DNA of 64,000 nucleotides from Caulobacteraceae bacterium (GTDB taxonomy: Bacteria; Pseudomonadota; Alphaproteobacteria; Caulobacterales; Caulobacteraceae). Shown piece after piece: positions 43,555-61,102 of the stretch. A program made the translations under genes and the position numbers. Location: contig JANWHQ010000159.1 of the NCBI GenBank assembly GCA_025450315.1, forward strand, positions 8,429-72,428. Direction: 5' to 3'. The notes beneath the pieces were generated by a model. That model saw only the letters and a program-made list of their open reading frames with translations, was not told the DNA's origin and searched no databases. Position 1 is the first letter of the stretch, and each line of letters opens with the position of its first letter.

Positions 43555-44547
43555 CTAGCTCCCAAGCGTTCGCCTCAGCCAGAGATCGAACAGCGGGATC
43601 CATTCCTGGGTCGGCGTGCCCGGGAATCCGGTCCCGAAGGCGTGGCCGCCTTCCTGGAAGAAGTGGGCTTCCACCGGCCGGTGCGTGGCGCGCATGGCGG
43701 CCATCATCATCAGGCTGTTCTCGACAGGGACGGCGGGATCGTCGCAGGCATGGGCCAAAAAGACGGGGGGCGTCGCCGCGGTCACGTGCTGTTCGGGTGA
43801 CCGCGCGGCGACGAGCTGGTCCGAAGGCGAGCGTCCGAGCAGGTGATCGCGCGACCCTTCGTGGGTGTAGGGCCGGGTCATGGTGATCACCGGATAGATC
43901 AGGCCGGCCGCCGCAGGCCGGGCGTCGAGCCGATCGGCGCTGTCGGAGGGCGGGTAGAGGTCCTCGGCGAAGCCAGTGGCGAGCGATGCGGCCAGGTGGC
44001 CGCCCGCGGAGAAGCCCAACACCGAGAGGCGCGCCGGATCGATCCGGTGGCGCGCCGCCGAGGCGCGGATCACCCGCATGGCGCGCTGCGCGTCCTGCAG
44101 CGGCGCGTCAGGGCCGTGGGTCCAGCCCTCGGCGGGCAGCCGGTAGTTCAGCACGAAGACAGTGTAGCCGCGCGGGTTCATGCGCGCGGCGATGTCCACA
44201 CCCTCGTTCGCGACGGACACGAATTCATAGCCTCCGCCGGGAATGACCAACAGCCCCGAGCCGTTCGGCTTCCTCGCAGGGAAGATGTGCAGGGTCGGGT
44301 CGCGGGTATTGCGCAGGAAGACGGGCGGGAAGTCGGCAGGGAGCGGAGCCGGGCGGAATTCGCCGGCGCCGGGTGCGCCCTCTGGCCACAGACGCGCCAC
44401 CCGTGCTTTCGGCCAGGCGGCGGGCATGGCCTTCGCCGGGCGCGGAGGCTCGAGTTGCACGGGCGCAGCGGCGGCCGCCCCGGCCGCTGCGAGCGCTCCC
44501 CCTCCGATCAGTCCGAACAGGGACCTGCGATCGACGCCTGAGTTCAT
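43555..44547 (-). CDS. exported alpha/beta hydrolase (esterase, PGGG-type)
   Basis: Internal ATG at 44547 (330 aa). It has a Tat-like signal (MNSGVDRRSLFGLIGGGALAAAGAAAAA), the oxyanion region VIPGGGY and the nucleophile elbow GFSAGG. Confidence 0.8.
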   Translation of the reverse strand: MNSGVDRRSLFGLIGGGALAAAGAAAAAPVQLEPPRPAKAMPAAWPKARVARLWPEGAPGAGEFRPAPLPADFPPVFLRNTRDPTLHIFPARKPNGSGLLVIPGGGYEFVSVANEGVDIAARMNPRGYTVFVLNYRLPAEGWTHGPDAPLQDAQRAMRVIRASAARHRIDPARLSVLGFSAGGHLAASLATGFAEDLYPPSDSADRLDARPAAAGLIYPVITMTRPYTHEGSRDHLLGRSPSDQLVAARSPEQHVTAATPPVFLAHACDDPAVPVENSLMMMAAMRATHRPVEAHFFQEGGHAFGTGFPGTPTQEWIPLFDLWLRRTLGS

Positions 44548-44571
44548 GACTTTCCCCGGTAGCTTCGGCCT

Positions 44572-44583
44572 GAAAACGATTGC
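44572..44583. promoter_or_regulatory. degenerate LacI-type operator-like site GAAAACGATTGC
   Basis: Lies in the divergent gap between the esterase (ATG 44547) and the SGNH gene (44656). It shares the 14-mer AAACGATTGCATGA with the site at 58410. Confidence 0.4.
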
Positions 44584-44655
44584 ATGATGGCTTTGCCGCG
44601 TCCATAGCCGCGATCGAGTTCCGCATGGGCGTGGGCCCGAGGAAAGGGGAACGAG

Positions 44656-45492
44656 GTGTCTGGGGGGAACACGAGGATCTGGGCGTCGGTCGCGGCCGCC
44701 GCCCTCTGTCTTCTGGCGAAGACTGGGCTGGCGGACGCCTCTGGCGGCCCGACCGCGATCGTCGCCGATCCCTGCTCGGGTCTCGTGGACAAGCCCATGG
44801 ACTCCAGTCTGAGACCGATACTGGCTCCGGGGGCGAAGCTCACGCCGCCCCCGCCCGATCCGGCGCAGGCCAAGGCCATGGCTGAACAGAGGGCCAAGGA
44901 CTGGCCGAACCTCTGCCGTTACCGGGCGGCCAATGCGGCGATGAAGCACGCGCCAAGGGTCGTCTTCATGGGCGACTCGATCACCGAGCTCTGGAAGATC
45001 GCCGATCCGGGGTTCTTCTCGGACGATCGGGTGGATCGGGGCATCAGCGGTCAGACCAGTCCGCAGATGCTGCTCCGCTTCAGAGCAGACGTCGTCGACA
45101 TCAGGCCCCGGACCGTGCACATCCTGGCCGGCACCAACGACATCGCCGGCAACACCGGGCCGACGAGCGAGAAGGCGTTCCAGGACAATATCGAGTCGAT
45201 GGTCGAGCTCGCCAAGGCGCACCACATCCGGGTCGTGCTGGCCTCGATCCTGCCAATGGGCTCGATCGGCTGGCAGCCCCAATACCGGCCGGCCGAAGAA
45301 GTCCGTCGGTTGAACCGGTGGCTGCGCGAATACGCGGCTCGGAGCGGCGAGACCTACCTGGACTACTACAGCCGCCTGGCCACGGCGGATGGGTCGTTCA
45401 GGTCCGATCTTTCCAATGACGGGGTGCACCCGAACCTGGCGGGATACGCGATCATGCGCGAGATGGCCGACAGGGCCCTTGGCTTGAATTAG
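44656..45492 (+). CDS. exported SGNH/GDSL hydrolase
   Basis: 278-aa ORF (GTG start) with a signal peptide. All SGNH blocks are present: FMGDSITE, GISGQT, AGTNDI and DGVHPN. Confidence 0.85.
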   Translation: MSGGNTRIWASVAAAALCLLAKTGLADASGGPTAIVADPCSGLVDKPMDSSLRPILAPGAKLTPPPPDPAQAKAMAEQRAKDWPNLCRYRAANAAMKHAPRVVFMGDSITELWKIADPGFFSDDRVDRGISGQTSPQMLLRFRADVVDIRPRTVHILAGTNDIAGNTGPTSEKAFQDNIESMVELAKAHHIRVVLASILPMGSIGWQPQYRPAEEVRRLNRWLREYAARSGETYLDYYSRLATADGSFRSDLSNDGVHPNLAGYAIMREMADRALGLN

Positions 45493-45507
45493 CCGGGCGC
45501 GTCCCCG

Positions 45508-46770
45508 TCAGGAGATGGCGCCTGCAGCGGCCGCGGGTTCGTCGAGATAATCTTCGTCGTCGCGCTGGGCGAGACGGCCGCGGGTGGGGTTGGCGACAAC
45601 GTTCCAGACGCCAAGGGCGGCAAGCAGCCCGGCGAAGACGCTGGCCAGATAGAGGCTGTATTTCGCATCGCCCAGCGCGTCGCTCAGGGCGGCCATGGCC
45701 AGGGGGGCGAGGACCGCGCTCAGGCACGTGAAGAACAGCAGGAGGCCCGCGATTTCGCCGTGCTTGGGCTTTGCGAAGCTGCTGATGCCCTTGGAGTTGA
45801 TGGTCGGGTAGAGCACCGACATGAAGAGGCCGGATGCCGGGAGGGTCACCGCGGCCACTCCCCGGCCGCCCAGGCACCCGGCCAGGAAGCACAGGAAGAC
45901 CCCGGAGCTGCAGATGACCACCACCTGCGCCCAGGGAAGGCGCGCCAGCAGCCAGGCGCCGACAAATCGCCCGGCGGCGCGCAGCACGAAGAAGATCGAG
46001 ACGACATAAAGGGCGAACCAGGCGACGGGACCGCGGTAGCCCTGCAGGTAGGTGGGCGCCCAGACATAGACGGCCGCCTCCGTGGCTACGTAGAGCATGA
46101 GCGCCAGTGAAAACACCAAGGCGTAAGGATCGCGGAGCAGCGACAAGGTCTCGCTCAGACTCCGGGACCTGACCGCCTCTCGCCGAGCAGATTGCGGAAA
46201 ACGAGTGAAGACCGCGACGGCGATCAGGATCGCGCACAGCCCGCTGGCGATCACATAGAGCCACTTCCAATCGGCCCCCGACACGAGCAGGCGGGCCACG
46301 ATCGCGGGTCCGACGATCGCGCCGACGCCGAAGAAACCCTCCAGCATGTTCATGGTGGCCGAATGCTCGCGGGTGGAGCGGGAGATGTCGCCGATCATCG
46401 CCAGGGCGCCGGCCTTGAAGACGCCGATGCCCACGCCGGAAAGGAACAGAAGGAAGATGAAGACCACGAAGTCGCGGCCGACGGCGAAGAGGGCGCACGA
46501 GGCGGCGAACACCAGGAGTCCCGCGACGATGCTCCTTTTGCGGCCCCACCGGTCGGCGAGGAAGCCGAGGCCGAACGCGGCGATCGCGATGCCCGACATG
46601 GTCGCGTACTGGAACGCGCCGCCCGCCGTCATTCCGAGCGAGTACCGCTTGATGACCTGCGGAATGATCACGCCCACGGAGTCCGTGGTCATTGCGAACA
46701 TCGCGAACATGAAGAAGGCCAGCGCCTTCAGAAGGCCGATGCGGGGTGTTCCGTGGCCGGTCATGTGCAC
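45508..46770 (-). CDS. MFS transporter
   Basis: 420-aa ORF with about 12 TM segments and the MFS loop motif DRWGRKRS. Confidence 0.88.
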   Translation of the reverse strand: MHMTGHGTPRIGLLKALAFFMFAMFAMTTDSVGVIIPQVIKRYSLGMTAGGAFQYATMSGIAIAAFGLGFLADRWGRKRSIVAGLLVFAASCALFAVGRDFVVFIFLLFLSGVGIGVFKAGALAMIGDISRSTREHSATMNMLEGFFGVGAIVGPAIVARLLVSGADWKWLYVIASGLCAILIAVAVFTRFPQSARREAVRSRSLSETLSLLRDPYALVFSLALMLYVATEAAVYVWAPTYLQGYRGPVAWFALYVVSIFFVLRAAGRFVGAWLLARLPWAQVVVICSSGVFLCFLAGCLGGRGVAAVTLPASGLFMSVLYPTINSKGISSFAKPKHGEIAGLLLFFTCLSAVLAPLAMAALSDALGDAKYSLYLASVFAGLLAALGVWNVVANPTRGRLAQRDDEDYLDEPAAAAGAIS

Positions 46771-46863: not shown

Positions 46864-46875
46864 GCAACCGTTTGC
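46864..46875. promoter_or_regulatory. LacI-type operator-like site GCAACCGTTTGC (10/12 palindromic)
   Basis: Lies in the 122-bp gap upstream of the MFS gene (ATG 46770). Confidence 0.4.
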
Positions 46876-46892
46876 GGAGCGGTAGGCGCGCG

Positions 46893-47957
46893 TCAGACCT
46901 GTGCAGAGCGCAGCATCCGCCCCAGGGCGGCGTCGATGGCCCGGCTGAACCGGCGCGACACCGCCGCTGTCGGCACGAGGAACTGGAACGCGTGATAGGC
47001 GCCCGGAACCACCAGCAACTCGGTTGGGACGCCCGCGTCGAGCAGGCGTTGGGCGTAGGCGATGTCCTCCTGGACGAACAGGTCGAGGCCCCCGACGCCG
47101 ATGAAGGTCGGCGGCAGTCCGGCGAGTGTTGCGGCCCGGGCCGGGACGGCGCCCTTGGGGACCGCGGCGGAGCCGGCGGGCAAGCCGAGAAGCGCCGACC
47201 AGCCGAGCACGTTCAGCTCGGGCGTCCAGATGTAGGCGCCTTGATAGGGCGATGGCCGCCGAACGCTGCCGGTGCGGTCGTCGAGCATGGCGTAGACCAG
47301 CACCTGACCCGCCAGCGTGACCTCGCCCCGATCGCGGGCCGCCAGCGCGAGCGCCGCCGCGTGTCCCCCACCGGCGCTTTCGCCCATGACCGCGATGCGG
47401 CTGCGGTCCACGCCCAACCGTTCGGCGTGGTCGTGCAGCCAGAGGAGGCCCGCGTAATTGTCTTCCAGGGATCCTGGGAACCGGGTTTCGGGCGCGAGGC
47501 GGTAGTCGACGCTGACGATTAGGCAGCCCTGTTCGGCGGCGATCCGTTGCAGGTTCCGCATGTCGCTCTGGGGCGAACCGAGGATGTAGCCGCCGCCGTG
47601 CGTGTGGAGGATGGCCGGCCGGAGCTGGTCCGAAGGTCCCCCGCCGACGAGGAAGAGCCGCACCGGCGGCGCGTCCCCGCGACCCGGAATGAGCTCCTGC
47701 CGCACCGGAGGGGTCGCCAGGGGAGGGGGCGGCGCCTGGGTCGACGCTCGGCGGAAGGCCGGAATGTCCTGTTCCCGCAGCATGGGGATCCTGACCTTGT
47801 CAGGCTGTCGGACGGCGGACCGGAGTTCCGGATCGACGAGGTCCAGCGGGGTCTTTGGCGGCGAGCCGGGCGTGGCGCCCGCGCCGATCGCAGGAACGGC
47901 GGCGCCTAACGCAGTCAGCGCCAGCGTCAGTCCGCGCCGCGTAAGATCATGCGCCAT
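46893..47957 (-). CDS. exported alpha/beta hydrolase fold-3 esterase (HGGG type)
   Basis: Internal ATG at 47957 (354 aa). It has a Tat-like signal (MAHDLTRRGLTLALTALGAAVPA), HTHGGGY and GESAGG. Confidence 0.85.
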   Translation of the reverse strand: MAHDLTRRGLTLALTALGAAVPAIGAGATPGSPPKTPLDLVDPELRSAVRQPDKVRIPMLREQDIPAFRRASTQAPPPPLATPPVRQELIPGRGDAPPVRLFLVGGGPSDQLRPAILHTHGGGYILGSPQSDMRNLQRIAAEQGCLIVSVDYRLAPETRFPGSLEDNYAGLLWLHDHAERLGVDRSRIAVMGESAGGGHAAALALAARDRGEVTLAGQVLVYAMLDDRTGSVRRPSPYQGAYIWTPELNVLGWSALLGLPAGSAAVPKGAVPARAATLAGLPPTFIGVGGLDLFVQEDIAYAQRLLDAGVPTELLVVPGAYHAFQFLVPTAAVSRRFSRAIDAALGRMLRSAQV

Positions 47958-48006: not shown

Positions 48007-48018
48007 GCAAACGTTTGC
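48007..48018. promoter_or_regulatory. LacI-type operator, perfect palindrome GCAAACGTTTGC
   Basis: 12-bp perfect palindrome with a central CG. It sits 50 bp upstream of the esterase ATG (47957) and 28 bp after the LacI gene stop. Confidence 0.6.
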
Positions 48019-48045: not shown

Positions 48046-49122
48046 CTAGCCGCCGCTGGGCGCGTGGCCGGGGACCGGCGGAGTGGAGTCCCGCTCGATC
48101 AGGGCGATGGGCAGCGTGGCCGACGGCGTCTCCTCGCCCGCCATGCGGCGGAACAGGAACTCCACGACGGTGGCGGCGCCGCGCTTGAGGTCCTGGCGTA
48201 TGGTGGTGAGCCGCGGGTGGGAGTGCTGCGCCAGCTCCAGATCGTCGAAACCCACCACCGCGACCTGGTCCGGCACGGACACGCCGCTGGCCTCGAGCGC
48301 CCTCAGCGCCGAGAGCGCGATCACGTCGGAGGCGGCGAAGATGGCGTCGAACTCGATCCCGCGCGAGATCAGGTCCTGCACCGCGGCCAGGGCCGTGTCG
48401 CCGGTGAAGTGGGCAGGCAGGATCAGGTCGGGATCGACCGACAGCCCCGCGCGCTCGAGGCCGCTGCGGTACCCCTGAAGCCGCATCTGGATTTCGGGCA
48501 AGGGCGCCGCGCCGAGGAATACGATTCGTCTGCGCCCTGTTTCGATCAGCCGATCCACCGCCGCCCGGCCGCCGCCGACATTGTCCGAACCGACCGAGCA
48601 GTACACCTGCTCGGGCAGGTGGGCGCCCCAGACGACGAGCGGCAGGAATGCGCGGGCCGCCGCATTGAGCTCCTCATGCTGGTCGCTCTGGCCGACGATG
48701 ATATAGCCGTCGGCTTTCTGGGACTGGACGTGGCGGACCAGCCAACCGGGCTTTGGCGACGGGACCCGGGAAAGCAGGACGTCGTGATTCCGGAGCGAGA
48801 CCTCGTCGGCGATGTGGCCGAACAGCTGCAGGAAGAACGGATCGGAGATCAGCTGGTCCGCCTCGTGTCCGAGCGGGATCGCCACCCCGATGGTCCGGGT
48901 CCGATTGGACCGGAGCCGTTGCGCCGCCTGGTTGATCACATAGCCGCTCTCCGCGGCGATCCGCTGGATCTGCTGGCGCGTCTTGATCGGGATCGCCGGG
49001 CTTTCGGCCAGGGCGCGGGACACGGTCGAGGTGGAGACGCCGGCCAGACGGGCGATATCGGCCATCTTCAACGGGGCCTGGCCGGGCCTCTTCAACGCCC
49101 TCAATTGGTTCGCGCGCGCCAT
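48046..49122 (-). CDS. LacI family transcriptional regulator
   Basis: It has an N-terminal HTH (KMADIARLAGVSTSTVSRAL) and a periplasmic-binding-protein-like sugar-binding core. The start is taken at ATG 49122 (49140 is also possible). Confidence 0.9.
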   Translation of the reverse strand: MARANQLRALKRPGQAPLKMADIARLAGVSTSTVSRALAESPAIPIKTRQQIQRIAAESGYVINQAAQRLRSNRTRTIGVAIPLGHEADQLISDPFFLQLFGHIADEVSLRNHDVLLSRVPSPKPGWLVRHVQSQKADGYIIVGQSDQHEELNAAARAFLPLVVWGAHLPEQVYCSVGSDNVGGGRAAVDRLIETGRRRIVFLGAAPLPEIQMRLQGYRSGLERAGLSVDPDLILPAHFTGDTALAAVQDLISRGIEFDAIFAASDVIALSALRALEASGVSVPDQVAVVGFDDLELAQHSHPRLTTIRQDLKRGAATVVEFLFRRMAGEETPSATLPIALIERDSTPPVPGHAPSGG

Positions 49123-49207
49123 GCGGCCTAGATAACCCAATGTGGCGGCCTGCGCGACGGTTCGGCTCCGGGCTCGCGCTCGCAGGAGATCAGCCGCTCC
49201 CGGCCAG

Positions 49208-50923
49208 CTATGCGGGCGCGAGGCTGGCCCGTTCGGGCCCGTCCGGGTCGAATTCGAGCCGCACTTCGTCGTCGAAGATCATGGTGGGGACCTTCTCCCG
49301 GGAACAGGGCGCCCAGGCCGGCATCGCCGCATGGTTCGGGTCGCCGGTGCGGGCGAACTGGATCCAGGCGTCGGAGACGATCGAACTCAGAGCGCGAGCC
49401 CGCGACCCGCCGCCTGTCATGTGATCGCAGACATCTGTGTTGGCGAAGACGAAGGGGATCTCGGCGCAGTGAAACGCGCGTGGCCGGCCGTCGAAGATGG
49501 GCGTCTGCCAGGCGAACCAGTAAAGATAGGCCGGCGCCCGGTTCAGGGCCGCCTTCGCCGCGGCCTGGCGGATGGCTGCCTGCCGCACCGGCGCGCTGGC
49601 GATGCGGGACCAGACGTCGAAGGGCTTGGCGCCGGGCATGCGCGCGCGGAACGCTGCGACGACGGCGGCCCCGCGGCCGGGATATGTCGCCTCGGTCCTG
49701 GCGAGGAGCTCCGGCTCGGTCATGAGCTCGTAGTCCGGATGGTTCATGGCCGTTGTGAACTCGTTCATGGTCGTGCCGATGATCATCGGCACGTCGGCGG
49801 AGAGTTCGGGCGCGCGCGGGTTGAACGGCGCTTCTGGCAGGACGTGTCCATCGGCCACCGGCGCAAAGCTCGCGCGAGAGGCCATGCTCCGGACATCTGG
49901 GACGCCCCCCGCCGGGCCGTTGGCCTTCAACAGCGCCGCCACGCTCGCTCGTTGGAGGTCGGCGTACGGCAGGTCGTGAAGCCGATCGAGGCTCGCGGAG
50001 TTGAGACCCAGCTCGGTCAGAACCAGGTCCGCCAGCCTTTGCGACTTGTCAGGCGTGTTGGTGAAGGCGAACGACCCGCTCTCCACCACCGCCCTGTGGA
50101 AGAGGCCCTTGGCCGACGGCATGCCCATCAGCGTGCCGACCTTGGCCCCGCCGCCCGACTGGCCGAAGATCAGGACCCTTCCAGGGTCGCCGCCAAACCC
50201 GGCGATGTTGTCGCGGACCCATTCCAGCGCGGCGACGATGTCGAGCATCCCGACGTTGCCCGAGGGGGCGTAGGCCGCGCCGTATTTCGACAGGTCGAGG
50301 AAGCCCAGGACGTTGAGCCGGTGGTTCAGGGTCACCACCACCACGTCGCCGCGCCGGGCGAGATTATCTCCATCGAAAGCCGGAATGTCGTTGCCGGAGC
50401 CCGCCTCGAAGCCGCCGCCGTGCAGCCAGACCATGACCGGGCGGCGCCCTGCGTCATTGATCCCCGGCGTCCAGACGTTCACCCGCAGGCAGTCTTCGCC
50501 TTCGACGCTGTCGTTCCACTGGAAGATGAAGGCTTCCTCGTCGTTCAGCCGTCCCGTGCCCTTGTCCTGGGGCGCGACGTAGCCGTACTGGCGCGAGCTT
50601 CGGATCCCCGTCCAAGGCCTCGGCGTCTTCGGCGGCAGAAAGCGGTTGGGACCGGCGGTGGTGTCGCCATAGGGGATTCCCTTGAAGGCGAAGACCCCTT
50701 TGCGGACATAGCCGGCGACCTTGCCGGACTGGGTGTCCACGATCGCGACGTCCGACCGGGCGACGACAGCGTCCTCACCCGTGCGATCCCGGTCTAGATG
50801 CGGTGCGGGCTGGGCCGCCAGATCCGAGGCGGCCCCGGCGGCGACCATGAGGCTTGCGCCCTTCAGCACGGTCCGGCGGGCCAGCCGCCTGGCCGAGGTC
50901 TTGTCATCTGCCTGATGCGTCAT
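49208..50923 (-). CDS. exported type-B carboxylesterase/lipase family protein
   Basis: 571-aa ORF with a Tat-like signal (SARRLARRTVLKGASLMVAAGAA), HGGGF and the nucleophile elbow GQSGGG. Confidence 0.9.
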   Translation of the reverse strand: MTHQADDKTSARRLARRTVLKGASLMVAAGAASDLAAQPAPHLDRDRTGEDAVVARSDVAIVDTQSGKVAGYVRKGVFAFKGIPYGDTTAGPNRFLPPKTPRPWTGIRSSRQYGYVAPQDKGTGRLNDEEAFIFQWNDSVEGEDCLRVNVWTPGINDAGRRPVMVWLHGGGFEAGSGNDIPAFDGDNLARRGDVVVVTLNHRLNVLGFLDLSKYGAAYAPSGNVGMLDIVAALEWVRDNIAGFGGDPGRVLIFGQSGGGAKVGTLMGMPSAKGLFHRAVVESGSFAFTNTPDKSQRLADLVLTELGLNSASLDRLHDLPYADLQRASVAALLKANGPAGGVPDVRSMASRASFAPVADGHVLPEAPFNPRAPELSADVPMIIGTTMNEFTTAMNHPDYELMTEPELLARTEATYPGRGAAVVAAFRARMPGAKPFDVWSRIASAPVRQAAIRQAAAKAALNRAPAYLYWFAWQTPIFDGRPRAFHCAEIPFVFANTDVCDHMTGGGSRARALSSIVSDAWIQFARTGDPNHAAMPAWAPCSREKVPTMIFDDEVRLEFDPDGPERASLAPA

Positions 50924-50929: not shown

Positions 50930-52063
50930 CTAGCGTCCCAGATGACGATCGAAGAACCTGACCATGACGTCATAGGCGTCCCGCGATTCCGGCACGTCCG
51001 GGTCGTAGAAGAAGCCGTGGAACATGCCGTCCCAGACGTGCAGCTCGGCGTCCACGCCGAGCCTCGACAGCCGGCTGTGGGTGTAGACGGCCGAGCTCAT
51101 CTCGAAACCCCTCGTCGCGGTGATGACCAGGGTCGGCGGGAACCGGCGGAGGACATCATCCGATGCGGCCGGGGCGACCTCAGGATCGTTCGGATCCGTC
51201 CCCGCGAAATAGCCAAGCGGCGGAACGCCGCCCGCTTTCGCCGGCGACGGGGCGGGCGGCGGCGGCGCTGGCCGCGCTTCACCGAGCGGAGCGGCCGTGT
51301 AGCTCGCATCGCCTCCGAACCCGAGGTCCGCCAGGGTCGCGCCGGCGCAGAAGATTCCGACCGCGCCGGGCCTCGGCAGGCCGTGCTTCTGGAACCACGC
51401 AACCGACATGCCGGTAAGCATGCCGCCGGCGGAACAGCCGTAGATACCGATGTTCGCTGCGGGATAGTGTTTCAGAAGATGGCGATAGACCGCCGCAACG
51501 TCCTCGCTGGCGGCCGGAAACCGGTATTTCGGGCCTTCCCGATAGTCGAGGCTGATCACCTCGATACGGGCGAGCGACGCGACCGGCATGGACTCCAGCT
51601 CGGCGCACCCGGGGAAGCATCCCGAGAACCCACCGCCATGCAGGTTGATCAGGACGCGCCGCCGGTTGCGCGGGGCGACGCCCGACCGCGGCGTAAAGAC
51701 ATAGGCATGCACGCCCGCAATCGTCGTGTCCTGCTTCGCGACCGGGAACAGCGTCTTCTGCCGGGCCAGATAGCCCTGCATGAAGACGGGGACGCCGTCC
51801 TTCTGAGCCACGAGATCAGGGCGCTGCATGTCTTTCAGGTGCTGGGCGAGATAGGCCTTGCCCTCGGGGCTGAGGAAGCTCGAGGGCGGCACCGTCATGG
51901 CCGGGACGTGCACCGTGCCGTCGTCGTCGACCTGGACGGCGGGGCTCCGCTCCGCCGGCTGGGCATGGACCATTCCCGGCGCTGCGCAGGCCAACGTCAC
52001 GGCGATCGCCGTGACCGCTCGGGCGAACCCCGCCAGGAAGGCAGATCTGGAATTCCACAACAT
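50930..52063 (-). CDS. exported alpha/beta hydrolase fold-3 esterase
   Basis: 377-aa ORF with a signal peptide ending in MVHAQ, plus NLHGGGF and GCSAGG. It starts 6 nt upstream of the next gene in the same orientation. Confidence 0.85.
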   Translation of the reverse strand: MLWNSRSAFLAGFARAVTAIAVTLACAAPGMVHAQPAERSPAVQVDDDGTVHVPAMTVPPSSFLSPEGKAYLAQHLKDMQRPDLVAQKDGVPVFMQGYLARQKTLFPVAKQDTTIAGVHAYVFTPRSGVAPRNRRRVLINLHGGGFSGCFPGCAELESMPVASLARIEVISLDYREGPKYRFPAASEDVAAVYRHLLKHYPAANIGIYGCSAGGMLTGMSVAWFQKHGLPRPGAVGIFCAGATLADLGFGGDASYTAAPLGEARPAPPPPAPSPAKAGGVPPLGYFAGTDPNDPEVAPAASDDVLRRFPPTLVITATRGFEMSSAVYTHSRLSRLGVDAELHVWDGMFHGFFYDPDVPESRDAYDVMVRFFDRHLGR

Positions 52064-54466: not shown

Positions 54467-54478
54467 GCAATCGATTGC
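54467..54478. promoter_or_regulatory. LacI-type operator, perfect palindrome GCAATCGATTGC
   Basis: 12-bp perfect palindrome located 100 bp upstream of the TonB-dependent receptor ATG, in the divergent gap. Confidence 0.6.
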
Positions 54479-54577: not shown

Positions 54578-54589
54578 GCAATCAATTGC
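54578..54589. promoter_or_regulatory. LacI-type operator-like site GCAATCAATTGC
   Basis: Same half-sites as 54467 but with a central CA instead of CG. It lies 30 bp upstream of the amylosucrase ATG. Confidence 0.5.
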
Positions 54590-54618: not shown

Positions 54619-56472
54619 ATGAGCGGTGCAGTGAAATTGGGCCAAGGACAAATGCACGCCGCCCCGGACCTGGCGCAGCTCGAGCTCCCCGACCGGATGG
54701 ATCGCTTATGGCCCGTCGCCGAGGCGTGCCTGCGGCGGGTCTACGGATCGCGACCCGACTGCGAGTTCTGGCTGCAGGGCATCGCACGGGTGGTCAAGGC
54801 GCTCGGGGAGGCCCGGCCGCGGGAACTGGCCCTGCGGGATCAGTCCCGTCCCGAATGGTGGCGGACGGGGAGCGTGGTCGGCTATTCGGCCTATGTCGAT
54901 CGCTTCGCGGGCGATCTGCGTGGCCTGCGGAGCCGCCTCCCGTACCTCAAGGAACTGGGCGTCCGCTATCTTCACCTCCTGCCGCTGCTCAAGTCGCGCG
55001 AGGGCGACAACGACGGGGGGTTCGCGGTCTCGGACTTCGGCTCGGTCGAGCCCCGACTGGGGACCAACGCAGACCTGCAGGACCTGGCGAGAGCGGCGCA
55101 CGAGATGGACCTCAGCCTCGTCCTTGACCTCGTCTGCAACCACACCGCCGACGATCACGCCTGGGCGAAGGCCGCGCGATCGGGCGACGAGGAATACAGG
55201 GACTACTACATCGTCCTGCCGGATCAGGGCGTGGTGGCGGACTACGAGAAGCGGCTGATCGACGTCTTTCCGGACGTCGCTCCCGGCAACTTCACCTATT
55301 CCAAGGAGATGGGCGGCTGGGTCTGGACCACCTTCTACCCATTCCAGTGGGACCTGAACTACGCCAATCCGGCCGTGTTCTGCGAGATGACGGCGGCCAT
55401 GCTGCGGTTGGCCAACATGGGGGTGGACGGCCTGCGCCTGGATTCCGCGCCTTTCATCTGGAAGCGGCGAGGGACAGCCTGCCGCAACCTGCCCGAGGCG
55501 CACTGGCTCCTGGCGACCTGGCGCGCACTGCTGACCATCGCCGCGCCCGGGGTGGTGCTCAAGGCCGAGGCGATCGAGCGCCTCGAGGATGTGAAGTCCT
55601 ATTTTGGGGAGACCGTCACCGAGCCGGAGTGTCACCTCGCCTACAACAACGGCGCCATGACCGCGCTCTGGGCGTCCCTGGCGCTCGGCCGTGCGGAGCC
55701 CATGCGGCGACTCGTCGATGCGGCCAGCCGGAAGCCTGCCTGGGGGACGTGGGTGAACTATGTGCGCTGCCACGACGACATCATCTGGTCTGCGCTGAGC
55801 CCGTGCCTGAGCCCTGAAGACCAGGCCCGCTGCTCCTCGTTCTTCGCCGGCCAGGTGAGCGGCTCGTTCGCCGCCGGCTCCGCCTTCCAGTCGGTCGCCG
55901 GCGCCGCCGCCAGCACCAACGGGATGGCCGCCGCGCTGGTCGGCATCGGTGACGATGATCCGGGCTCGGACGCCGCCAGGAGACTGGCGTTGTTGTACGC
56001 CGTGAGCTTCGCCTTGGATGGGATCCCGATCATCTGGATGGGCGACGAGATCGCCTTGGGAGACGCCGCGGCGAACCAGGACGCAGGCGCCGCCGGGTCC
56101 GACGGCCGATGGCTGCAACGGCCCCGCATGGATTGGCGGCGCGCAGACCTGCGAGGCGACGGCGGCGCGTTGCCCGGCCATGTGTTCCAGCAGTTTGCGC
56201 TCTATGCCCGGATTCGCGCGGCCGAGGCGGCCTTCGACGCCCAGCACGTGGCCAGGACAACGAAGGCGGACCATGTCGCCGTCCTGTGTTTCGTGCGAGG
56301 CGAGGGGGCCAGCTCGATCCAGTGCGCGGCGAACTTCTCGAACGCGAGATGCTCCACCAGATTGACGCTCGATGGCGGCAGCTGGCTGGACCTCCTGTCG
56401 CAGGACGCGGGAAGGGCGCGGGAGGTTGAGCTCGGCCCGTACCAGGTCCGTTGGCTCGTCAGCCGCCCGTGA
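54619..56472 (+). CDS. amylosucrase / sucrose hydrolase (GH13)
   Basis: 617-aa ORF without a signal peptide. GH13 blocks are DLVCNHTA and GLRLDSAPFIWKRRGTACRNLPEAH (amylosucrase-type), plus VRCHDD. Confidence 0.88.
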   Translation: MSGAVKLGQGQMHAAPDLAQLELPDRMDRLWPVAEACLRRVYGSRPDCEFWLQGIARVVKALGEARPRELALRDQSRPEWWRTGSVVGYSAYVDRFAGDLRGLRSRLPYLKELGVRYLHLLPLLKSREGDNDGGFAVSDFGSVEPRLGTNADLQDLARAAHEMDLSLVLDLVCNHTADDHAWAKAARSGDEEYRDYYIVLPDQGVVADYEKRLIDVFPDVAPGNFTYSKEMGGWVWTTFYPFQWDLNYANPAVFCEMTAAMLRLANMGVDGLRLDSAPFIWKRRGTACRNLPEAHWLLATWRALLTIAAPGVVLKAEAIERLEDVKSYFGETVTEPECHLAYNNGAMTALWASLALGRAEPMRRLVDAASRKPAWGTWVNYVRCHDDIIWSALSPCLSPEDQARCSSFFAGQVSGSFAAGSAFQSVAGAAASTNGMAAALVGIGDDDPGSDAARRLALLYAVSFALDGIPIIWMGDEIALGDAAANQDAGAAGSDGRWLQRPRMDWRRADLRGDGGALPGHVFQQFALYARIRAAEAAFDAQHVARTTKADHVAVLCFVRGEGASSIQCAANFSNARCSTRLTLDGGSWLDLLSQDAGRAREVELGPYQVRWLVSRP

Positions 56473-56483
56473 GCGGCCGATGC

Positions 56484-56832
56484 GCAGCCGTCGAGCTCGA
56501 CGGCGCCCGGGTCGCCGTCGATGCGGTATGGGAGCTCGCCGGCGCCTATCCGGGCCCAGCTCTGCGCGGTGCTCGCCCTGATCGTGTCGCCCCGCAGGAT
56601 CGTGCTGGGCGGCGGCGTCGGCCGCCGGCCCGGGGTTCTCCGGGCGGCTCGGCGCGGGCTGGCGACCCAACTTTCAGGCTATCTGACCCGCCCTCAGCCC
56701 GATGAACTCGACAGCTACCTGGTCGAACCCGGCTTCGGATCGGACTCGGGGCTCTTCGGCGCGCTCGCGTTGGCCCAAGGTCAAGGCGAACAGGAGAAGC
56801 TTTCGGCGCGCGCCTTGTCGCCGCCCTCGTAG
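56484..56832 (+). pseudogene. remnant of a ROK-family sugar kinase (fructokinase-like): C-terminal part only, frameshifted
   Basis: One frame reads ...VELDGARVAVDAVWELAGAY. A second frame continues ...IRAQLCAVLALIVSPRRIVLGGGV...LSGYL...YLVEPGFGSDSGLFGALALA. No N-terminal ATP-binding half is present, and the 3' end overlaps the converging tannase gene. Confidence 0.5.
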
Positions 56833-58376
56833 CGGGCGACCTGGGGGTAGGGGCAAAGCGGCCGGCTCTGTCCGGGGAACGATGCGCCGGTGGCCACGAG
56901 CCGCTCGGGGGCGTGGTCGTCCTCGACCCATGACATCAGCGCGCTCAGGGCGTCGAAGCGATCGGTGGCCGGACCGCCCTGGCAGTGGTTCATGCCCGGC
57001 ACGAGGAACAGGCGCGCCCAGTCCTGGGGCGGGCCCGCGTCCTTGGCCAGCTCATCGTACCAGCCGATGATGTCGTTGGCCGAAAACACGGGATCGCTCA
57101 GGCCCTGGTAGATCAGAAGGCGCCCGCCGTGCTGGACGAAGCTGCTCAGGAAGGTCGACGTAGGGTCGTTGATCGCGCCGGTCTGGGCAGTCAGATCCGC
57201 GGCCTTGTCGAAGTCGAAGGTCAGGGGATCGATGGCGGCGTCCTTGGGGGTCGCGAAGTACCGGCGCAGAGCGTCCAGCCCCATGGTCTGGTTGATGCCA
57301 TTGGCGGCGCCGGAGGGGGCCGAGCCCATCTTCCAGATCCGCCAGCCCATGTCGCCCACGCCGGCGTCGTAGGGCCAGCTCGCATAGATCGGGCGGCCTT
57401 TCGAGTCGCGCGCGCCAGCGAAGATCCGCTCGATCGCCCCGACCTTGGCCGCGCTCAGGCACCCGGTGGTCGAGCGGGCCTTGCAGGTCAGGACCCGGGG
57501 GTTGAAGCGGCAGGCGCGGAAATCGTTGATCATGCCGTCCTTCAAGCCATCGAGGCCGTCGCAAGCCTCGAGCGTCGCCTTGGCCAGGAGCTTCAGGTCG
57601 TCCGGGGTCAGGGCCTGGCTCACGATGGGCCGTCCCTGGGCATCGCGAGGCGCGATCTTGGCGAGCTGGGTGGTGTCCCAGAGCTCGCCGACCGCGGCGC
57701 GGCTGAGTCGGAATCCCGGGTCGCCGGCGATGATCCCGTCGAAGTCGAGGGGATATCGTTCGGCGGCCATCATCCCTTGGCGGCCGCCATTGGAACAGCC
57801 CATGAAATAGGAACGCTTGGGACCCTGGCCATAGAAGCGGGCGATGATCGCCTTGGCTTCGGCGGTCACCTTGCCCAACGCCTGATAGGCATAGTCCAGC
57901 CGCGCCTGCTGGTCGTCGGCGAAGCTCGCGTCGCCCCCTTGGTGCCCGGCGTCGGTGGTGACCACGGCGAAGCCCCTGGCCAGGGCGGGCTCGCCCCCGC
58001 TCCCAGCGCCCACGGCCGGGGTCACGACGCCGTCCAGGCCGCCCCCGCCCTGAAACAGGAAGCGGCCGTTCCACTTGGTCGGCAGGCGCAGCTCGAAGCC
58101 GATGCCATAGCTCTTGCCGCCGACGCCGGTTCGGGGGTCGAGCATGCCGCGGACGACGCAATGCTCGGGAAGCTGCACTGCCGGGGCGCCCGGCGGACCG
58201 AAAGCCGCCTTCATCGGGCCCGCCGGTGTCAACTCCGCCTTCTCGACGCGAAGGGCAGGGGACGCCAGGTCGGTCAGCGCGCGGCAGGCCTCTGCCGTAC
58301 CGTCCTGGGCATGGGCCAGCGACGCGCCGGCGAGCGATGCGGTCGCCGCGATGACCGCGGCCAGAAGCGATTTCAA
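56781..58376 (-). CDS. exported tannase/feruloyl esterase family hydrolase (paralog 1)
   Basis: 531-aa ORF with a signal peptide (MKSLLAAVIAATASLAGASLAHAQ). It has GCSNGGRQ (Cys-Ser) and PGMNHCQGG (His-Cys), the signature of this family. Confidence 0.9.
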   Translation of the reverse strand: MKSLLAAVIAATASLAGASLAHAQDGTAEACRALTDLASPALRVEKAELTPAGPMKAAFGPPGAPAVQLPEHCVVRGMLDPRTGVGGKSYGIGFELRLPTKWNGRFLFQGGGGLDGVVTPAVGAGSGGEPALARGFAVVTTDAGHQGGDASFADDQQARLDYAYQALGKVTAEAKAIIARFYGQGPKRSYFMGCSNGGRQGMMAAERYPLDFDGIIAGDPGFRLSRAAVGELWDTTQLAKIAPRDAQGRPIVSQALTPDDLKLLAKATLEACDGLDGLKDGMINDFRACRFNPRVLTCKARSTTGCLSAAKVGAIERIFAGARDSKGRPIYASWPYDAGVGDMGWRIWKMGSAPSGAANGINQTMGLDALRRYFATPKDAAIDPLTFDFDKAADLTAQTGAINDPTSTFLSSFVQHGGRLLIYQGLSDPVFSANDIIGWYDELAKDAGPPQDWARLFLVPGMNHCQGGPATDRFDALSALMSWVEDDHAPERLVATGASFPGQSRPLCPYPQVARYEGGDKARAESFSCSP

Positions 58377-58409
58377 AGCAGCTTCCCCCGAAGACTCTGG
58401 TTTTCAGGG

Positions 58410-58421
58410 ACAAACGATTGC
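58410..58421. promoter_or_regulatory. degenerate LacI-type operator-like site ACAAACGATTGC
   Basis: Lies in the divergent gap between tannase paralog 1 (ATG 58376) and the hydrolase gene (58483). It shares AAACGATTGCATGA with the site at 44572. Confidence 0.4.
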
Positions 58422-58482
58422 ATGAAGATTTAGCGGAGGTCCATGGGCGTGTACCCTGGGCCAGGAGCCTGGGGAGGCGAAC

Positions 58483-59478
58483 ATGATCGGACGTGTGATC
58501 CTTGGGGCCGCCGCGGGCGGCTGCCTGCTGGCCACGGCCTTGACCTGCGGGACGAGTCGGGCCCAGCCGGCGCCGCCGTCGGCGGACTTCCGGGCGGCCA
58601 TGGCGGCCTACGACAAGCTGCCCGACACGCCGGGCACGGGGCCGTTTCCGGCGATGAAGGCGGAGGATCCCGCGTTCCCGGGCCATGTGGTCTACCGCCC
58701 CGCGGACCTGGACCGGCTCGGCGGCCGCAAGCTGCCCATCGTGCTCTGGGGCAACGGCGGCTGCACCGACGATGCGGCGGCCGAACGGCTGTTCCTGGAG
58801 GAGATCGCCTCGCACGGCTACCTGCTGATCGCGCCGGGCGCCATCCTCTCCGGCCCGGGCGCGCCGCCCGCCCGTCCGGCCGCACCCCCGCCACCGCCGC
58901 CGCCCGCGGGGGCGCCGCGGCAGCCGCCGAAGCTCAGCGTCCGCACCACGACCGCCCAGATGGGGCAGGGGCTCGAACAGGCGCTCGCCGCCAACCGGGC
59001 GCCGGGCCCCTGGCACGACCGGCTGGACGAGAGCCGCGTCGCCGTCTCGGGCTATAGCTGCGGCGGCTTGCAGGCGCTGGCGCTGGCGGGCGATCCGCGG
59101 GTCAAGGCGGTGCTGATCCTCCACTCGGGCGTGTTCAATTCGGGAAGCCCGATCCAGGGCCTCCAGGTCGACAAGTCGGTGCTGAACACCCTGCACACGC
59201 CGGTGATCTACCTGCTGGGCGGGAAGACCGACATCGCCTGGCCGAACGGGACGGACGACTTCGCCCGCATCGACAAGGTCCCGGCGCTGCTGGCCAGCCA
59301 TGACGTCGGCCATGGCGGCACCTTCATGCAGCCCAACGGCGGGGCGGAGGCGCAGGTCGCGCGCGAATGGCTGGACTGGCAGCTGATGGGCGACGCCAAC
59401 GCCGGCAAGGCGTTCGTGGGCCCCGACTGCGGGCTCTGCCGCGATCCGCAGTGGACCGTGCAGCGCAAGGGCTTCTAG
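58483..59478 (+). CDS. exported alpha/beta hydrolase with an internal poly-Pro insertion
   Basis: 331-aa ORF with a signal peptide, the nucleophile elbow GYSCGG and a C-terminal His region (SHDVGHGG). It carries an unusual insert, PGAPPARPAAPPPPPPPAGAPRQPP. Confidence 0.75.
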   Translation: MIGRVILGAAAGGCLLATALTCGTSRAQPAPPSADFRAAMAAYDKLPDTPGTGPFPAMKAEDPAFPGHVVYRPADLDRLGGRKLPIVLWGNGGCTDDAAAERLFLEEIASHGYLLIAPGAILSGPGAPPARPAAPPPPPPPAGAPRQPPKLSVRTTTAQMGQGLEQALAANRAPGPWHDRLDESRVAVSGYSCGGLQALALAGDPRVKAVLILHSGVFNSGSPIQGLQVDKSVLNTLHTPVIYLLGGKTDIAWPNGTDDFARIDKVPALLASHDVGHGGTFMQPNGGAEAQVAREWLDWQLMGDANAGKAFVGPDCGLCRDPQWTVQRKGF

Positions 59479-59482
59479 GCCG

Positions 59483-61102
59483 ATGGGAGCAATCGCCGTG
59501 AGACTGCCGATCGTCCTCGCCCTGGCCTGGCTGGCCTGCGCCACGGCCGGCGCCGCCCAGGCGAGCGAAGCGGGCGACCGCTGCGCCGCCCTGAGGTCCT
59601 TCCCCTGGCCCAAGCTGCAGGTGGAGGCCGACCGCCTGGTCGCCGCGGGCCCGGCCGAGACGCCCCCCGGCGCGCCTGCGACGGCGCCCGTCGTGCTTCC
59701 CGAGCACTGCCTGTTCCGGGCGGTCATCTCGCCGCGGGTCTCCGCGGCGGGCCAACGGCTGGGCGTCGGCTTCGAACTGCGGCTTCCCACCGACTGGAAC
59801 GGCAGGTTCGTGTTCGAGGGCGGCGGCGGGCTGGACGGCGTGCTGAACCCGGCCCTGGGCGGGCTGGGCGGGCGCTCGCATCCGCCGGCGCTGGCGCAGG
59901 GATTCGCCGTCGTCACCACCGACGGAGGGCACCGGGGCGCCTCGCTGATGGACGCCCGCTTCGCCTTCGATCAGCAGGCGCGCATCGACTACGCCTACGG
60001 CGCGCTCGAGAAGACCACCTGGGCGGCCAAGGCGCTGATCCAGGCCTATTACGGCCGCGAGCCCGCCCATTCCTACTTCATCGGCTGCAGCAACGGCGGC
60101 CGCCAGGCCCTGATCGCCGCCGAACGGCTGCCGCTGGAGTTCGACGGCATCGTCGCGGGCGATCCGACTTTCCGTCTCGCCTGGACCAACGTCGACCAGG
60201 TCTGGAACGAGATCGTCCTGGCGCGCGGCGCACCCAGGGGGCCGGACGGCAGGCCAATCGTCAGCCGGACGCTTTCCGAGGGTGACCTGAAGCTCGTGGC
60301 GGATGCGGTGCTGCGCCAGTGCGATGGCTTGGACGGGCTGAAGGACGGGATGATCAACGACTTCCGCGCCTGCCGCTTCGACCCGGCGGTGCTGACCTGC
60401 AAGGGGGCCAAGACCGACCAGTGCCTCACCGTCCTTCAGGTGCGCACCCTGAAGGCTTTGATGGGCGGGCCGCACGACAGCCGGGGCCACGCGCTCTATG
60501 CCGCCTTCCCCTACGACACCGGCATCGGCGGAAGGGCCTTCCGCCAGATGCACTTCGGAAGTTCGGCCACGGGCGCGCTCGACGCGGCGGACGCAACCCT
60601 CGGCTTCGATTCCCTGCGCTATTACGCCTTCACCCCGCCCGATCCGTCGTTCGATCCCATGACCTTCGACTTCGACCGCGACACCGCGCGCGTGCTCCAG
60701 ACGTCCAAGCAGAACGACGCCGACGCAACTTTTCTCACCACCTTCGCAAAACGCGGCAAGCTGTTGCTTTACCATGGCCTTTCCGACCAGGGCCTGTCCC
60801 CGCTCGACACCGTCGCCTGGTACGGTCGCCTGGCCGCCACGACCGGCAGCGACACCTCGGCTTGGGCGAGGCTCTACCTTGTCCCCGGCATGACCCATTG
60901 CGCAGGCGGCCAGGCGACCGACGAGTTCGATGTGCTGAAGGCCATCCAGGCCTGGGTCGAGGACGGCGCGGCGCCCGACCGCATCGTCGCGCGCGGCAAG
61001 GCCTTCCCTGGAGTCACCCGCCCGCTCTGCCCATATCCCAAGGTGGCGCGCTATCAAGGGGGCGATCCGGCGAGCGAGAAGAGCTTCGCCTGCCGGGCGT
61101 AG
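59483..61102 (+). CDS. exported tannase/feruloyl esterase family hydrolase (paralog 2)
   Basis: 539-aa ORF starting 4 nt after the preceding gene. It has a signal peptide, GCSNGGRQ and PGMTHCAGG. It is collinear with 56781..58376 (about half of residues identical by eye). Confidence 0.9.
   Translation: MGAIAVRLPIVLALAWLACATAGAAQASEAGDRCAALRSFPWPKLQVEADRLVAAGPAETPPGAPATAPVVLPEHCLFRAVISPRVSAAGQRLGVGFELRLPTDWNGRFVFEGGGGLDGVLNPALGGLGGRSHPPALAQGFAVVTTDGGHRGASLMDARFAFDQQARIDYAYGALEKTTWAAKALIQAYYGREPAHSYFIGCSNGGRQALIAAERLPLEFDGIVAGDPTFRLAWTNVDQVWNEIVLARGAPRGPDGRPIVSRTLSEGDLKLVADAVLRQCDGLDGLKDGMINDFRACRFDPAVLTCKGAKTDQCLTVLQVRTLKALMGGPHDSRGHALYAAFPYDTGIGGRAFRQMHFGSSATGALDAADATLGFDSLRYYAFTPPDPSFDPMTFDFDRDTARVLQTSKQNDADATFLTTFAKRGKLLLYHGLSDQGLSPLDTVAWYGRLAATTGSDTSAWARLYLVPGMTHCAGGQATDEFDVLKAIQAWVEDGAAPDRIVARGKAFPGVTRPLCPYPKVARYQGGDPASEKSFACRA

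Follow-up and report, generated by a model that had tools for sequence, protein, structure and literature searches.

The 64,000 nucleotide stretch of contig JANWHQ010000159.1 analyzed here (the window), from a Caulobacteraceae bacterium, includes at positions 43555–61102 a gene cluster that is, on balance, probably a remodelled sucrose locus of the sux type feeding on esterified sucrose. Pfam assignments resolved the cluster into 13 intact genes and one fructokinase remnant. Exported serine hydrolases are encoded by eight of the 13 intact genes, all within 17.5 kb, and the remaining 46 kb of the window are ordinary chromosome with housekeeping genes. Because the window has 69% G+C, reading frames were chosen by third-position G+C, which ranged from 0.84 to 0.94. 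The gene content given in the original prediction, eight signal-bearing serine hydrolases interleaved with a TonB-dependent receptor (TBDR), a LacI-type regulator, a major facilitator superfamily (MFS) transporter and an amylosucrase, was recovered with every gene intact and in its predicted place. Also the proposed use of the locus in sugar-ester utilisation is supported at the sequence level, in that co-regulation and linkage, the two points on which it could be refuted in silico, both came out in its favour.

Related loci were reached from two sides. The amylosucrase search, which included one genome per species, gave 51 alphaproteobacterial loci, and 47 canonical loci were used for the comparison of SuxA-type receptors. 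The closest four (L001–L004, all from uncultured soil Caulobacteraceae or Alphaproteobacteria), with 64–78% identity, have esterase genes beside the sucrose genes, although in differing orders. The search from the receptor side added L056 and L057 (89% receptor identity), the P0006 contig (84%), L064 (78%, from the same genome as L004), L058 (63%) and the P0023 contig (54%). The linkage of esterase and sucrose genes, for which a synteny check in relatives had been called for, was present in nine related loci, to which the amylosucrase search and the receptor search had led independently. With the esterases numbered E1–E8 by their position in the window, the conserved core consists of the amylosucrase, the TBDR–E5–E4–LacI genes with or without the MFS gene, E2 and E1, and the tannase and cutinase-like module (E6, E7–E8) is accessory. 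The order TBDR–E5–E4 was kept in L001, L004/L064, L056 and the P0006 contig.

The core of the locus is formed by genes of sucrose uptake and cleavage. The SuxC-type inner-membrane sugar transporter (45508–46770, minus strand; Pfam MFS_1) is 50–61% identical to the MFS proteins of canonical sux loci, including those of Asticcacaulis and Caulobacter. In L064 (8161–9744, corresponding to 8279–9928 in L004), a sodium:solute symporter gene under the shared operator stands in place of the SuxC-type MFS gene. The LacI-family repressor of the SuxR/SucR type (48046–49140, minus strand; Pfam LacI and Peripla_BP_3), the final gene of the TBDR–E5–E4–LacI unit, is 48–61% identical over more than 90% of its length to the LacI proteins of more than 30 canonical alphaproteobacterial sux loci, the Xanthomonas protein not being among those directly compared. 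The SuxB-type enzyme of glycoside hydrolase family 13 (GH13), an amylosucrase or sucrose hydrolase (54619–56472, plus strand), is predicted to be cytoplasmic. Its best matches in the PDB were 2wpg (deposited as 'amylosucrase or alpha amylase'; 4.5e-151) and the sucrose hydrolase 3cze (4e-148), from Xanthomonas campestris and Xanthomonas, respectively. The four GH13 catalytic regions (DLVCNH, GLRLDSAPF, KAEAIE and RCHDD) are intact, and an exact-protein look-up of the enzyme returned no record. As had been claimed, Pfam identified no glycoside hydrolase among the locus proteins other than this GH13 sucrose enzyme.

The decayed ROK-family kinase noted earlier was confirmed as a fructokinase remnant (56473–56832, plus strand), in which Pfam recognized only a C-terminal ROK piece. 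The remnant has arisen by an internal, frame-breaking deletion of ca. 583 bp in comparison to the intact gene of L001 and L003, the missing block being visible in the DNA alignment to L001. Intact copies of the fructokinase gene are present in L001, L003, L058 and the P0006 contig; L002, L004 and L056 lack the gene wholly, and it therefore appears to have been lost repeatedly in the esterase-rich clade.

The esterase genes are tied to the sucrose genes by a shared predicted operator. The palindrome GCAAnCGnTTGC, with at most one mismatch, occurs eight times in the 64 kb against 2.96 expected, and six of the eight occurrences lie in the promoter regions of the locus. The stricter core CAAnCGnTTG was found five times in the window, against 0.51 expected. 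When the window was scored with a position weight matrix (PWM) trained on 43 sites from canonical sux loci of other genera, the six locus sites were the six top matches, with scores from 29.3 to 11.4 bits, and the next independent match scored -1.0. Operator 1, GAAAACGATTGC (44572–44583; PWM score 21.1), is situated in the divergent E1/E2 promoter region, operator 2, GCAACCGTTTGC (46864–46875; 11.9), upstream of the MFS gene, and operator 3, the perfect palindrome GCAAACGTTTGC (48007–48018; 22.0), upstream of E3. Operators 4 and 5 share the divergent region between the TBDR and amylosucrase genes: operator 4, GCAATCGATTGC (54467–54478), is also a perfect palindrome and has the highest score of the window (29.3), and operator 5, GCAATCAATTGC (54578–54589; 15.9), lies ca. 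110 bp from it. Operator 6, ACAAACGATTGC (58410–58421; 11.4), is in the divergent E6/E7 promoter region. Three of the five promoter regions, E1/E2, E3 and E6/E7–E8, serve esterase genes only.

Transcription units predicted behind an operator are E1, E2, MFS, E3, TBDR–E5–E4–LacI, amylosucrase, E6 and E7–E8. A scan for sigma-70 promoters and intrinsic terminators performed no better than shuffles in DNA of 69% G+C, and the operon boundaries were therefore drawn from spacing and operators alone. The operator-like sites noted in the original prediction thus proved real by both pattern and PWM, and within the 64 kb they are restricted to the locus.

Canonical loci of Caulobacter, Asticcacaulis, Niveispirillum, Nitrospirillum and Sphingomonas have the same type of motif upstream of suxA/suxB, and their sites are usually paired with a spacing similar to that of operators 4 and 5. 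In the related loci L001–L004, L056 and L058 the operators are retained at orthologous promoters despite the rearranged gene order, and in L056 and L058 they are present at every divergent promoter. Operator 4 is kept in all related loci for which there was DNA, operator 2 in L001, L002 and L056, operator 3 in L001 and L002, and operator 6 in L001, L003 and L056. The in silico check of co-regulation thus gave predicted SuxR-type operators before every unit, conserved in six related loci. When the intergenic regions E1/E2 and E6/E7 of four genomes were aligned, the mean column identity was 37%, and the only invariant blocks were AAACGATTGCA and a GTCCA box ca. 17 nt downstream. This box is common to both divergent esterase promoters (44548–44655 and 58377–58482), and the operator may overlap the -35 region of the rightward esterase promoters.

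Such sites could in principle be fortuitous palindromes in a chance neighbourhood of two unrelated, interleaved gene sets, since LacI-type palindromes are short, about three loose matches are expected per 64 kb, and soil alphaproteobacteria are rich in esterase genes. The six sites are, however, concentrated in ca. 1 kb of promoter DNA, with none of comparable score in the other 63 kb; both the sites and the gene linkage survive rearrangements in the related loci, and the association recurs with two other sucrose enzymes, a GH68 enzyme and sucrose phosphorylase (see below). Chance is an extremely improbable explanation of the cluster.

The eight esterases have intact catalytic nucleophile and oxyanion motifs. 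They represent six families or subfamilies instead of the approximately five first proposed, the sole close paralogues among them being E6 and E8 (54.5% identity). Export signals were judged by eye and with a hydropathy heuristic (12-residue Kyte–Doolittle mean). A hydrophobic, signal-like N-terminal segment was seen in all eight (means 1.5–2.4, in comparison to 0.59 for the amylosucrase and 1.03 for LacI), and twin-arginine motifs are present in E1 (RRSLF), E3 (TRRGLTL) and E4 (ARRTVLKG). By this heuristic, the Sec- or Tat-like signal assigned earlier to each esterase is present, and also the description of the amylosucrase as signal-less stands; LacI is likewise signal-less.

E1 (43555–44547, minus strand) is a BD-FAE/PaeX-like, acetylesterase-type alpha/beta hydrolase (Pfam BD-FAE, 74 bits, and Abhydrolase_3) with a PGGG oxyanion motif and a GFSAG nucleophile motif. 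Against the NCBIfam PaeX equivalog model it scored 283 bits, under the cut-off of 550, which makes it a related family member and not an equivalog. Its best PDB matches were the esterase 6a6o and 7dwc, and orthologues are present in L002, L004, L056 and L058. E2 (44656–45492, plus strand) is an SGNH/GDSL hydrolase (Pfam Lipase_GDSL_2, 107 bits) with GDS, GTND and DGVH blocks, most similar among solved structures to the Bacteroidales GDSL protein 3p94 (2e-54). E3 (46893–47957, minus strand) belongs to the hormone-sensitive-lipase (HSL) family (Pfam Abhydrolase_3, 193 bits; HGGG, GESAG); its start was set at the ATG at 47957 because the longer open reading frame to 48020 would engulf operator 3. 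E4 (49208–50923, minus strand) is a type-B carboxylesterase (Pfam COesterase, 308 bits; HGGG, GQSGG) with the bacterial carboxylesterases 7x8l, Est50 and pNB esterase as its best PDB matches (3e-99). E5 (50930–52063, minus strand), directly downstream of the TBDR gene, is an HSL-family esterase of the GCSAG type (Pfam Abhydrolase_3), which scored 365 bits in NCBIfam GCSAG_HSLs, under the cut-off of 410, and matched PMGL2 best in the PDB (2e-72).

The remaining three enzymes form the accessory module. E6 (56781–58376, minus strand) and E8 (59483–61102, plus strand) are tannase/feruloyl-esterase-family hydrolases, with scores of 412 and 385 bits against the Pfam PF07519 gathering score of 29.8, and both have the Cys-Ser nucleophile (GCSNG) and His-Cys motifs. 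E7 (58483–59478, plus strand; GYSCG) is a cutinase/PETase-like alpha/beta hydrolase with weak Pfam matches: the PETase model gave 16.6 bits against a cut-off of 28, and the match to DLH was below or at the threshold. Its PDB matches, over two stretches, were 9hl5, 9k0h, 9w68 ('PETase') and the lipase 2fx5, at ca. 1e-15. NCBIfam had no family for E6, E7 or E8. E8 follows E7 after 4 bp in the same predicted operon, so that a cutinase/PETase-like and a MHETase-like enzyme, the two types familiar from the degradation of PET, stand as a natural pair under a sucrose-type operator (58483–61102); the adjacency is kept in L002 (17543–20149) and L056 (2821–5435).

These enzymes bring to mind a module for xenobiotic or aromatic esters (phthalate or terephthalate esters, polyester oligomers, pyrethroids) inserted by chance into a sucrose locus. 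MHETase is the best solved-structure match of both E6 (3e-114) and E8 (1.5e-106), E7 matches PETase-like enzymes and a cutinase-like lipase and adjoins E8, and E4 is a type-B carboxylesterase. Among the highest-ranking solved structures, however, MHETase is simply the one bacterial tannase-family member. When E6 was aligned to the MHETase structure 6qz1, Arg411, the residue binding the carboxylate of mono(2-hydroxyethyl) terephthalate (MHET), was replaced by Gln, and its neighbours F415 and S416 by Leu and Asp, respectively, W397 being kept; R411, F415 and S416 are positions of MHET/terephthalate binding in MHETase. An identity of E6 and E8 with MHETase was rejected on these replacements. Furthermore, Pfam revealed no terephthalate or phthalate catabolic genes in the locus, every esterase unit has a sucrose-type operator that is conserved across several soil genomes, and L064 and the P0006 contig have the core esterases E1, E2, E4 and E5 but no tannase module. 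An inserted xenobiotic module is thus very unlikely.

The 737-residue TBDR (52154–54367, minus strand; Pfam Plug and beta-barrel) had been described as sucrose-type, which was not upheld: it belongs to a non-SuxA clade and is similar to SuxA-type receptors only at the level of the plug domain (E 2e-5). In the canonical loci, a SuxA-type TBDR of ca. 800–930 residues adjoins the amylosucrase gene in 41 of the 47 and, in truncated form, in three more. No SuxA-like sequence was found in the window or in the clade loci L001–L004 and L056–L058. In NCBIfam the window receptor was nearest to a siderophore-receptor subfamily (112 bits, below the cut-off).

Six of its paralogues, a small sample with 45–54% identity, were compared by their surroundings. 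One of them (P0023, 54%) is in a locus combining sux and esterase genes, three adjoin esterase genes without sucrose genes, a fifth adjoins only a beta-lactamase-fold protein, and the sixth is without any esterase in its vicinity. Among the three is a paralogue (54%) from the L004 genome, which forms a two-gene unit with a tannase 59% identical to E6 (L059, 10001–13922); the second is beside two carboxylesterases and a GDSL hydrolase, and the third beside a PF00756 esterase and a tannase. The L059 unit has GntR- and MarR-type regulators alongside, with neither sucrose genes nor a SuxR-type operator, and is probably a separate uptake system for aromatic esters. The neighbourhoods of these receptors suggest, at the level of gene content, that the clade handles ester substrates. 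In the window the ancestral SuxA has been replaced by the 737-residue receptor, and this replacement, if anything, strengthens the idea of sucrose esters as substrate.

The linkage was also approached from the esterase side, by scanning metagenome contigs with an alignment of E1 orthologues. Homologues of E1 with more than ca. 54% identity were mostly accompanied by other members of the set, and those with less than ca. 52% mostly were not. In L084, orthologues of E5 (68%), E4 (55%) and E1 (50%) and two E3-like genes are found with a different TBDR and a LacI gene (43%). The locus includes a GH68 levansucrase/invertase gene (8522–9697) with the motifs WDMW, RDP and ELERP, and a perfect operator lies between this gene and the divergently oriented E1; neither an amylosucrase nor an MFS gene was found in the locus. 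In L067, a perfect operator separates E1 from the oppositely oriented genes for E2, sucrose phosphorylase and fructokinase, the E2 orthologue lying directly upstream of the phosphorylase gene (926–2419) on the same strand. The phosphorylase was identified by TIGR03852 with 417 bits against an equivalog cut-off of 334. The esterases of both loci carry signal peptides and the L067 phosphorylase does not. A further locus, L074, has four perfect operators and encodes five esterases of related types together with two receptors, a LacI, a fructokinase and a SuxC-like MFS (60%). In L084 (GH68), L067 (sucrose phosphorylase) and the window (GH13), orthologues of the esterases are therefore coupled to sucrose-cleaving enzymes of three kinds, and the linkage check was also favourable from the esterase side.

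Single exported esterases are present in otherwise canonical loci as well. The order suxA–esterase–suxB was found in Sphingomonas echinoides, S. vulcanisoli, Sphingomonas sp. Ant H11 and Novosphingobium sp. Rr 2-17, a BD-FAE enzyme past suxB in Sphingomonas sp. CD22, and a tannase in the sux loci of two Niveispirillum species. The enzyme inserted between suxA and suxB is an exported Abhydrolase_3 esterase ca. 34% identical to E5 (L035, 8901–9953; L048, 8922–9974; L050, 8793–9848; L037, ca. 9012–9845). Seven of the eight esterase matches in canonical loci were at most 1.5 kb from a sux gene (binomial p = 0.002), these representing only about three independent arrangements.

In the pathway that we propose, acylated sucrose would be taken up by the TBDR, and its acyl groups would be stripped in the periplasm by the six families of Sec- or Tat-exported serine hydrolases. 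The tannase-type and cutinase-like enzymes might remove aromatic groups, the PaeX-like and SGNH enzymes acetyl groups, and the HSL-family and type-B carboxylesterases short- to medium-chain aliphatic groups. The freed sucrose would enter the cytoplasm by the SuxC-type transporter, and there be cleaved by the SuxB-type GH13 enzyme. Sucrose would also relieve the repression by LacI, in which case the whole set would be induced only while sucrose is being liberated. Such relief by sucrose has been shown for SuxR of Xanthomonas and SucR of Caulobacter (PMC1790865, PMC11897816).

The enzyme mix, which extends over tannase-type, cutinase-like, PaeX-like, SGNH, HSL-family and type-B enzymes, would suit substrates with mixed acyl groups, for example phenylpropanoid sucrose esters with feruloyl or coumaroyl as well as acetyl groups, or acylsucroses. 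Acylsugars and hydroxycinnamoyl sucrose esters are abundant defence and storage metabolites of plants. Likely candidates for the natural substrate are acylsucroses of plants and sucrose esters of the phenylpropanoid type (feruloyl, coumaroyl, sinapoyl, acetyl).

The same regulatory arrangement can be read in another way, in which sucrose only signals that plant material is near. The SuxR-type repressor would then still control the esterases together, but these, perhaps as secreted enzymes, would act on unrelated plant esters, for example chlorogenate, oligomers of cutin or suberin, or acetyl or feruloyl groups carried by fragments of hemicellulose and pectin, and the receptor would import the products. 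Operators before esterase genes are equally compatible with this, the families present (PaeX-like, SGNH, tannase/feruloyl esterase, cutinase-like) are generic plant-ester families, and some receptor paralogues are accompanied by esterases without sucrose genes. Also the variable oxygenase genes after the esterases (TauD in the window, HpaB in L056, and an FAD monooxygenase with gentisate-type genes in L058) suggest that the acyl part is itself a nutrient. A mere cue is, however, less consistent with the loss of the free-sucrose receptor SuxA in every clade locus while SuxC and SuxB were kept, and with the tight same-strand arrays of esterase and sucrose-enzyme genes (suxA–esterase–suxB in Sphingomonas, E2–sucrose phosphorylase–fructokinase in L067). 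Furthermore, the sole glycoside hydrolase of each design is always sucrose-cleaving, in three different families, and the locus has no genes for other sugar or polymer products. On this evidence sucrose as a cue alone seems unlikely.

Several points weigh against the use of sucrose esters as nutrient. It is odd, for a pathway dedicated to sucrose, that the fructokinase gene of the window carries a deletion and that several relatives lack the gene altogether. The activity of the esterases on sugar esters is purely our inference, and their signals indicate export across the inner membrane only; a periplasmic location is presumed, and onward type II secretion would be compatible with the same signals. 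In L084, the GH68 enzyme is signal-less while the locus shows no inner-membrane sugar transporter. The core AAnCGnTT of the operator is common to many LacI-family factors, and binding by the window LacI and induction by sucrose would be as extrapolated from Xanthomonas and Caulobacter (PMC1790865, PMC11897816). The training sites of the PWM were chosen by a pattern first seen in the window, and the core is thus not independent, but the flanks and locations of the sites are. Finally, the full-size loci are all from uncultured soil genomes, some with frameshifts, and the related loci are not phylogenetically independent.

A bolder version of the sucrose-ester reading, which could well be right but is put forward tentatively, is that sucrose esters of plants, namely acylsucroses of the Solanaceae type and phenylpropanoid esters, are served in soil alphaproteobacteria by a dedicated pathway not described before. 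A specialised TBDR would import the intact ester, up to eight periplasmic esterases would strip it, and the sucrose would both feed the cell and induce the set. The pathway would have been assembled at least three times, with GH13_4, GH68 and sucrose phosphorylase, and aromatic sugar esters would, as the adjacent cutinase-like and MHETase-like genes hint, be a native substrate class of the lineage that gave rise to the plastic-degrading MHETase. Full-text literature searches found no bacterial system for sucrose-ester utilisation and no link of sux/suc loci or TBDRs to sucrose-ester hydrolysis, an absence that is not proof.

If the proposal is true, the ways in which soil and rhizosphere bacteria exploit or detoxify sucrose esters could be studied with the receptor of the locus, its esterases of six families, and its regulator, for which the operator is defined. 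The exchange of the receptor would represent a simple sugar locus retargeted to a decorated substrate by swapping the outer-membrane receptor, and the locus would give a natural context for MHETase-like and PETase-like enzymes. The esterase set might also be of use in regioselective sucrose-ester chemistry. The one-esterase version of the locus is present in cultured, tractable organisms: Sphingomonas echinoides ATCC 14820, Novosphingobium sp. Rr 2-17 and Niveispirillum irakense DSM 11586.

The locus is chromosomal and lies beside housekeeping genes. The other genes of the window encode CobT, CTP synthase, ribosomal protein L13, homoserine dehydrogenase, GlpX, PhaC and queuosine proteins, among others, and a megablast search of the whole locus against plasmids gave no match. 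Rfam and tRNA scans of the window found only four tRNA genes, none inside the locus. A genomic island at the tRNA-Lys gene (39549) was considered and rejected, as there is no compositional break and the flanking genes vary among the relatives. The tRNA-Lys gene is followed, up to 43361, by genes for a lignostilbene-dioxygenase-like protein (NCBIfam 454 bits, under the cut-off of 800), a SnoaL_4 protein, a 316-residue protein without family match and a DUF3237 protein; none of the genes in this region has an operator or is beside the locus in relatives. Farther away, at 29392–31867, there is a patch of low G+C (0.61 vs 0.70) with an IS1595-family transposase, and adjacent small open reading frames of 245 and 128 residues resemble a toxin–antitoxin pair.

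On the other side, a TauD/TfdA-family dioxygenase gene (61119–62054, plus strand; Pfam TauD, 194 bits) begins 16 nt past E8, has no operator of its own, and may be co-transcribed with E8. It is followed by an MFS gene of the monocarboxylate type (61119–63603 for the two). The position after E8 is occupied by HpaB in L056 and by a third tannase in L002. The TauD gene, this second MFS gene and the DUF3237, SnoaL and stilbene-dioxygenase-like genes were rejected as locus members, having no operator and not being conserved beside the locus in relatives. The gene 3' of the esterase operon is a differing oxygenase in each genome: the TauD/TfdA-family gene in the window, an HpaB-family hydroxylase in L056 (1201–2781) and an FAD monooxygenase in L058 (19047–20417), the last locus being flanked also by gentisate-pathway-like genes. 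These differing oxygenases may reflect catabolism of the released aromatic acids.

Among known systems, siderophore uptake with a TBDR and a periplasmic esterase (PfeA/PfeE, IroN/IroE) resembles the window locus in having a receptor of siderophore-receptor size for an ester-containing small molecule, which would here also be followed by hydrolysis by periplasmic esterases. Unlike in those systems, the esterases are of other families, the repressor is a sugar repressor, and there are no iron-related genes or regulators; a siderophore-esterase system was rejected since no iron-related gene was found in the locus, Fur boxes not having been searched for. The pair PETase and MHETase of Ideonella sakaiensis has its counterpart in the tannase family of E6 and E8 and in the PETase/cutinase-like E7, adjacent to E8 in an apparent operon. 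The window differs from it in the changed MHETase substrate-binding residues, the distance of E7 (ca. 1e-15), the sucrose-type operator and the lack of terephthalate genes.

In Dickeya dadantii, the pectin acetylesterase PaeX de-esterifies imported oligosaccharides in the periplasm. The logic proposed here would be the same as with PaeX and the esterases of xylan and pectin polysaccharide utilisation loci (PULs) of Bacteroidota: a decorated sugar is imported, acetyl or feruloyl groups are removed in the periplasm, and the bare sugar is taken up and cleaved. In contrast to these, the sugar would be a disaccharide instead of a piece of polysaccharide, the locus lacks SusD as well as any glycoside hydrolase or lyase acting on polysaccharides, and the ratio of esterases to glycosidases is inverted, being 8:1. 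A SusC/SusD-type PUL was rejected, as no SusD-family match and no glycoside hydrolase beyond GH13 were found among the locus proteins. Also the acylsugar acylhydrolases (ASH) of tomato, carboxylesterase-fold enzymes that remove acyl chains from acylsucroses, would be similar in the proposed reaction. They are plant trichome enzymes remodelling the plant's own metabolites, with no coupling to transport or catabolism, and their genomic organisation is unrelated.

The closest known systems are the sux locus of Xanthomonas campestris, suxR–suxC–suxA–suxB (Blanvillain et al. 2007, PMC1790865), and the sucR/sucABCD locus of Caulobacter crescentus (Modrak et al. 2018; PMC11897816). No esterase is among the genes in these published descriptions, and the word 'esterase' is absent from a survey of LacI regulons (PMC4052901). 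Four of the five sequence-level features of sux/suc loci were found in the window: the LacI-family repressor, the palindromic operator of the same type, the MFS sucrose transporter and the cytoplasmic, amylosucrase-like GH13 sucrose hydrolase. Shared are also the position of the receptor gene, divergent from or adjacent to the hydrolase gene, and, in many relatives, the fructokinase gene downstream. The fifth feature, a SuxA/SucA-type receptor, is missing, and the locus is therefore regarded as a variant of the sux locus rather than a member. It differs from both known systems in the replacement of this receptor by an unrelated TBDR of 737 residues, in the deleted fructokinase gene, and in the four to eight exported esterases that have, in the window and its clade, joined the predicted regulon.

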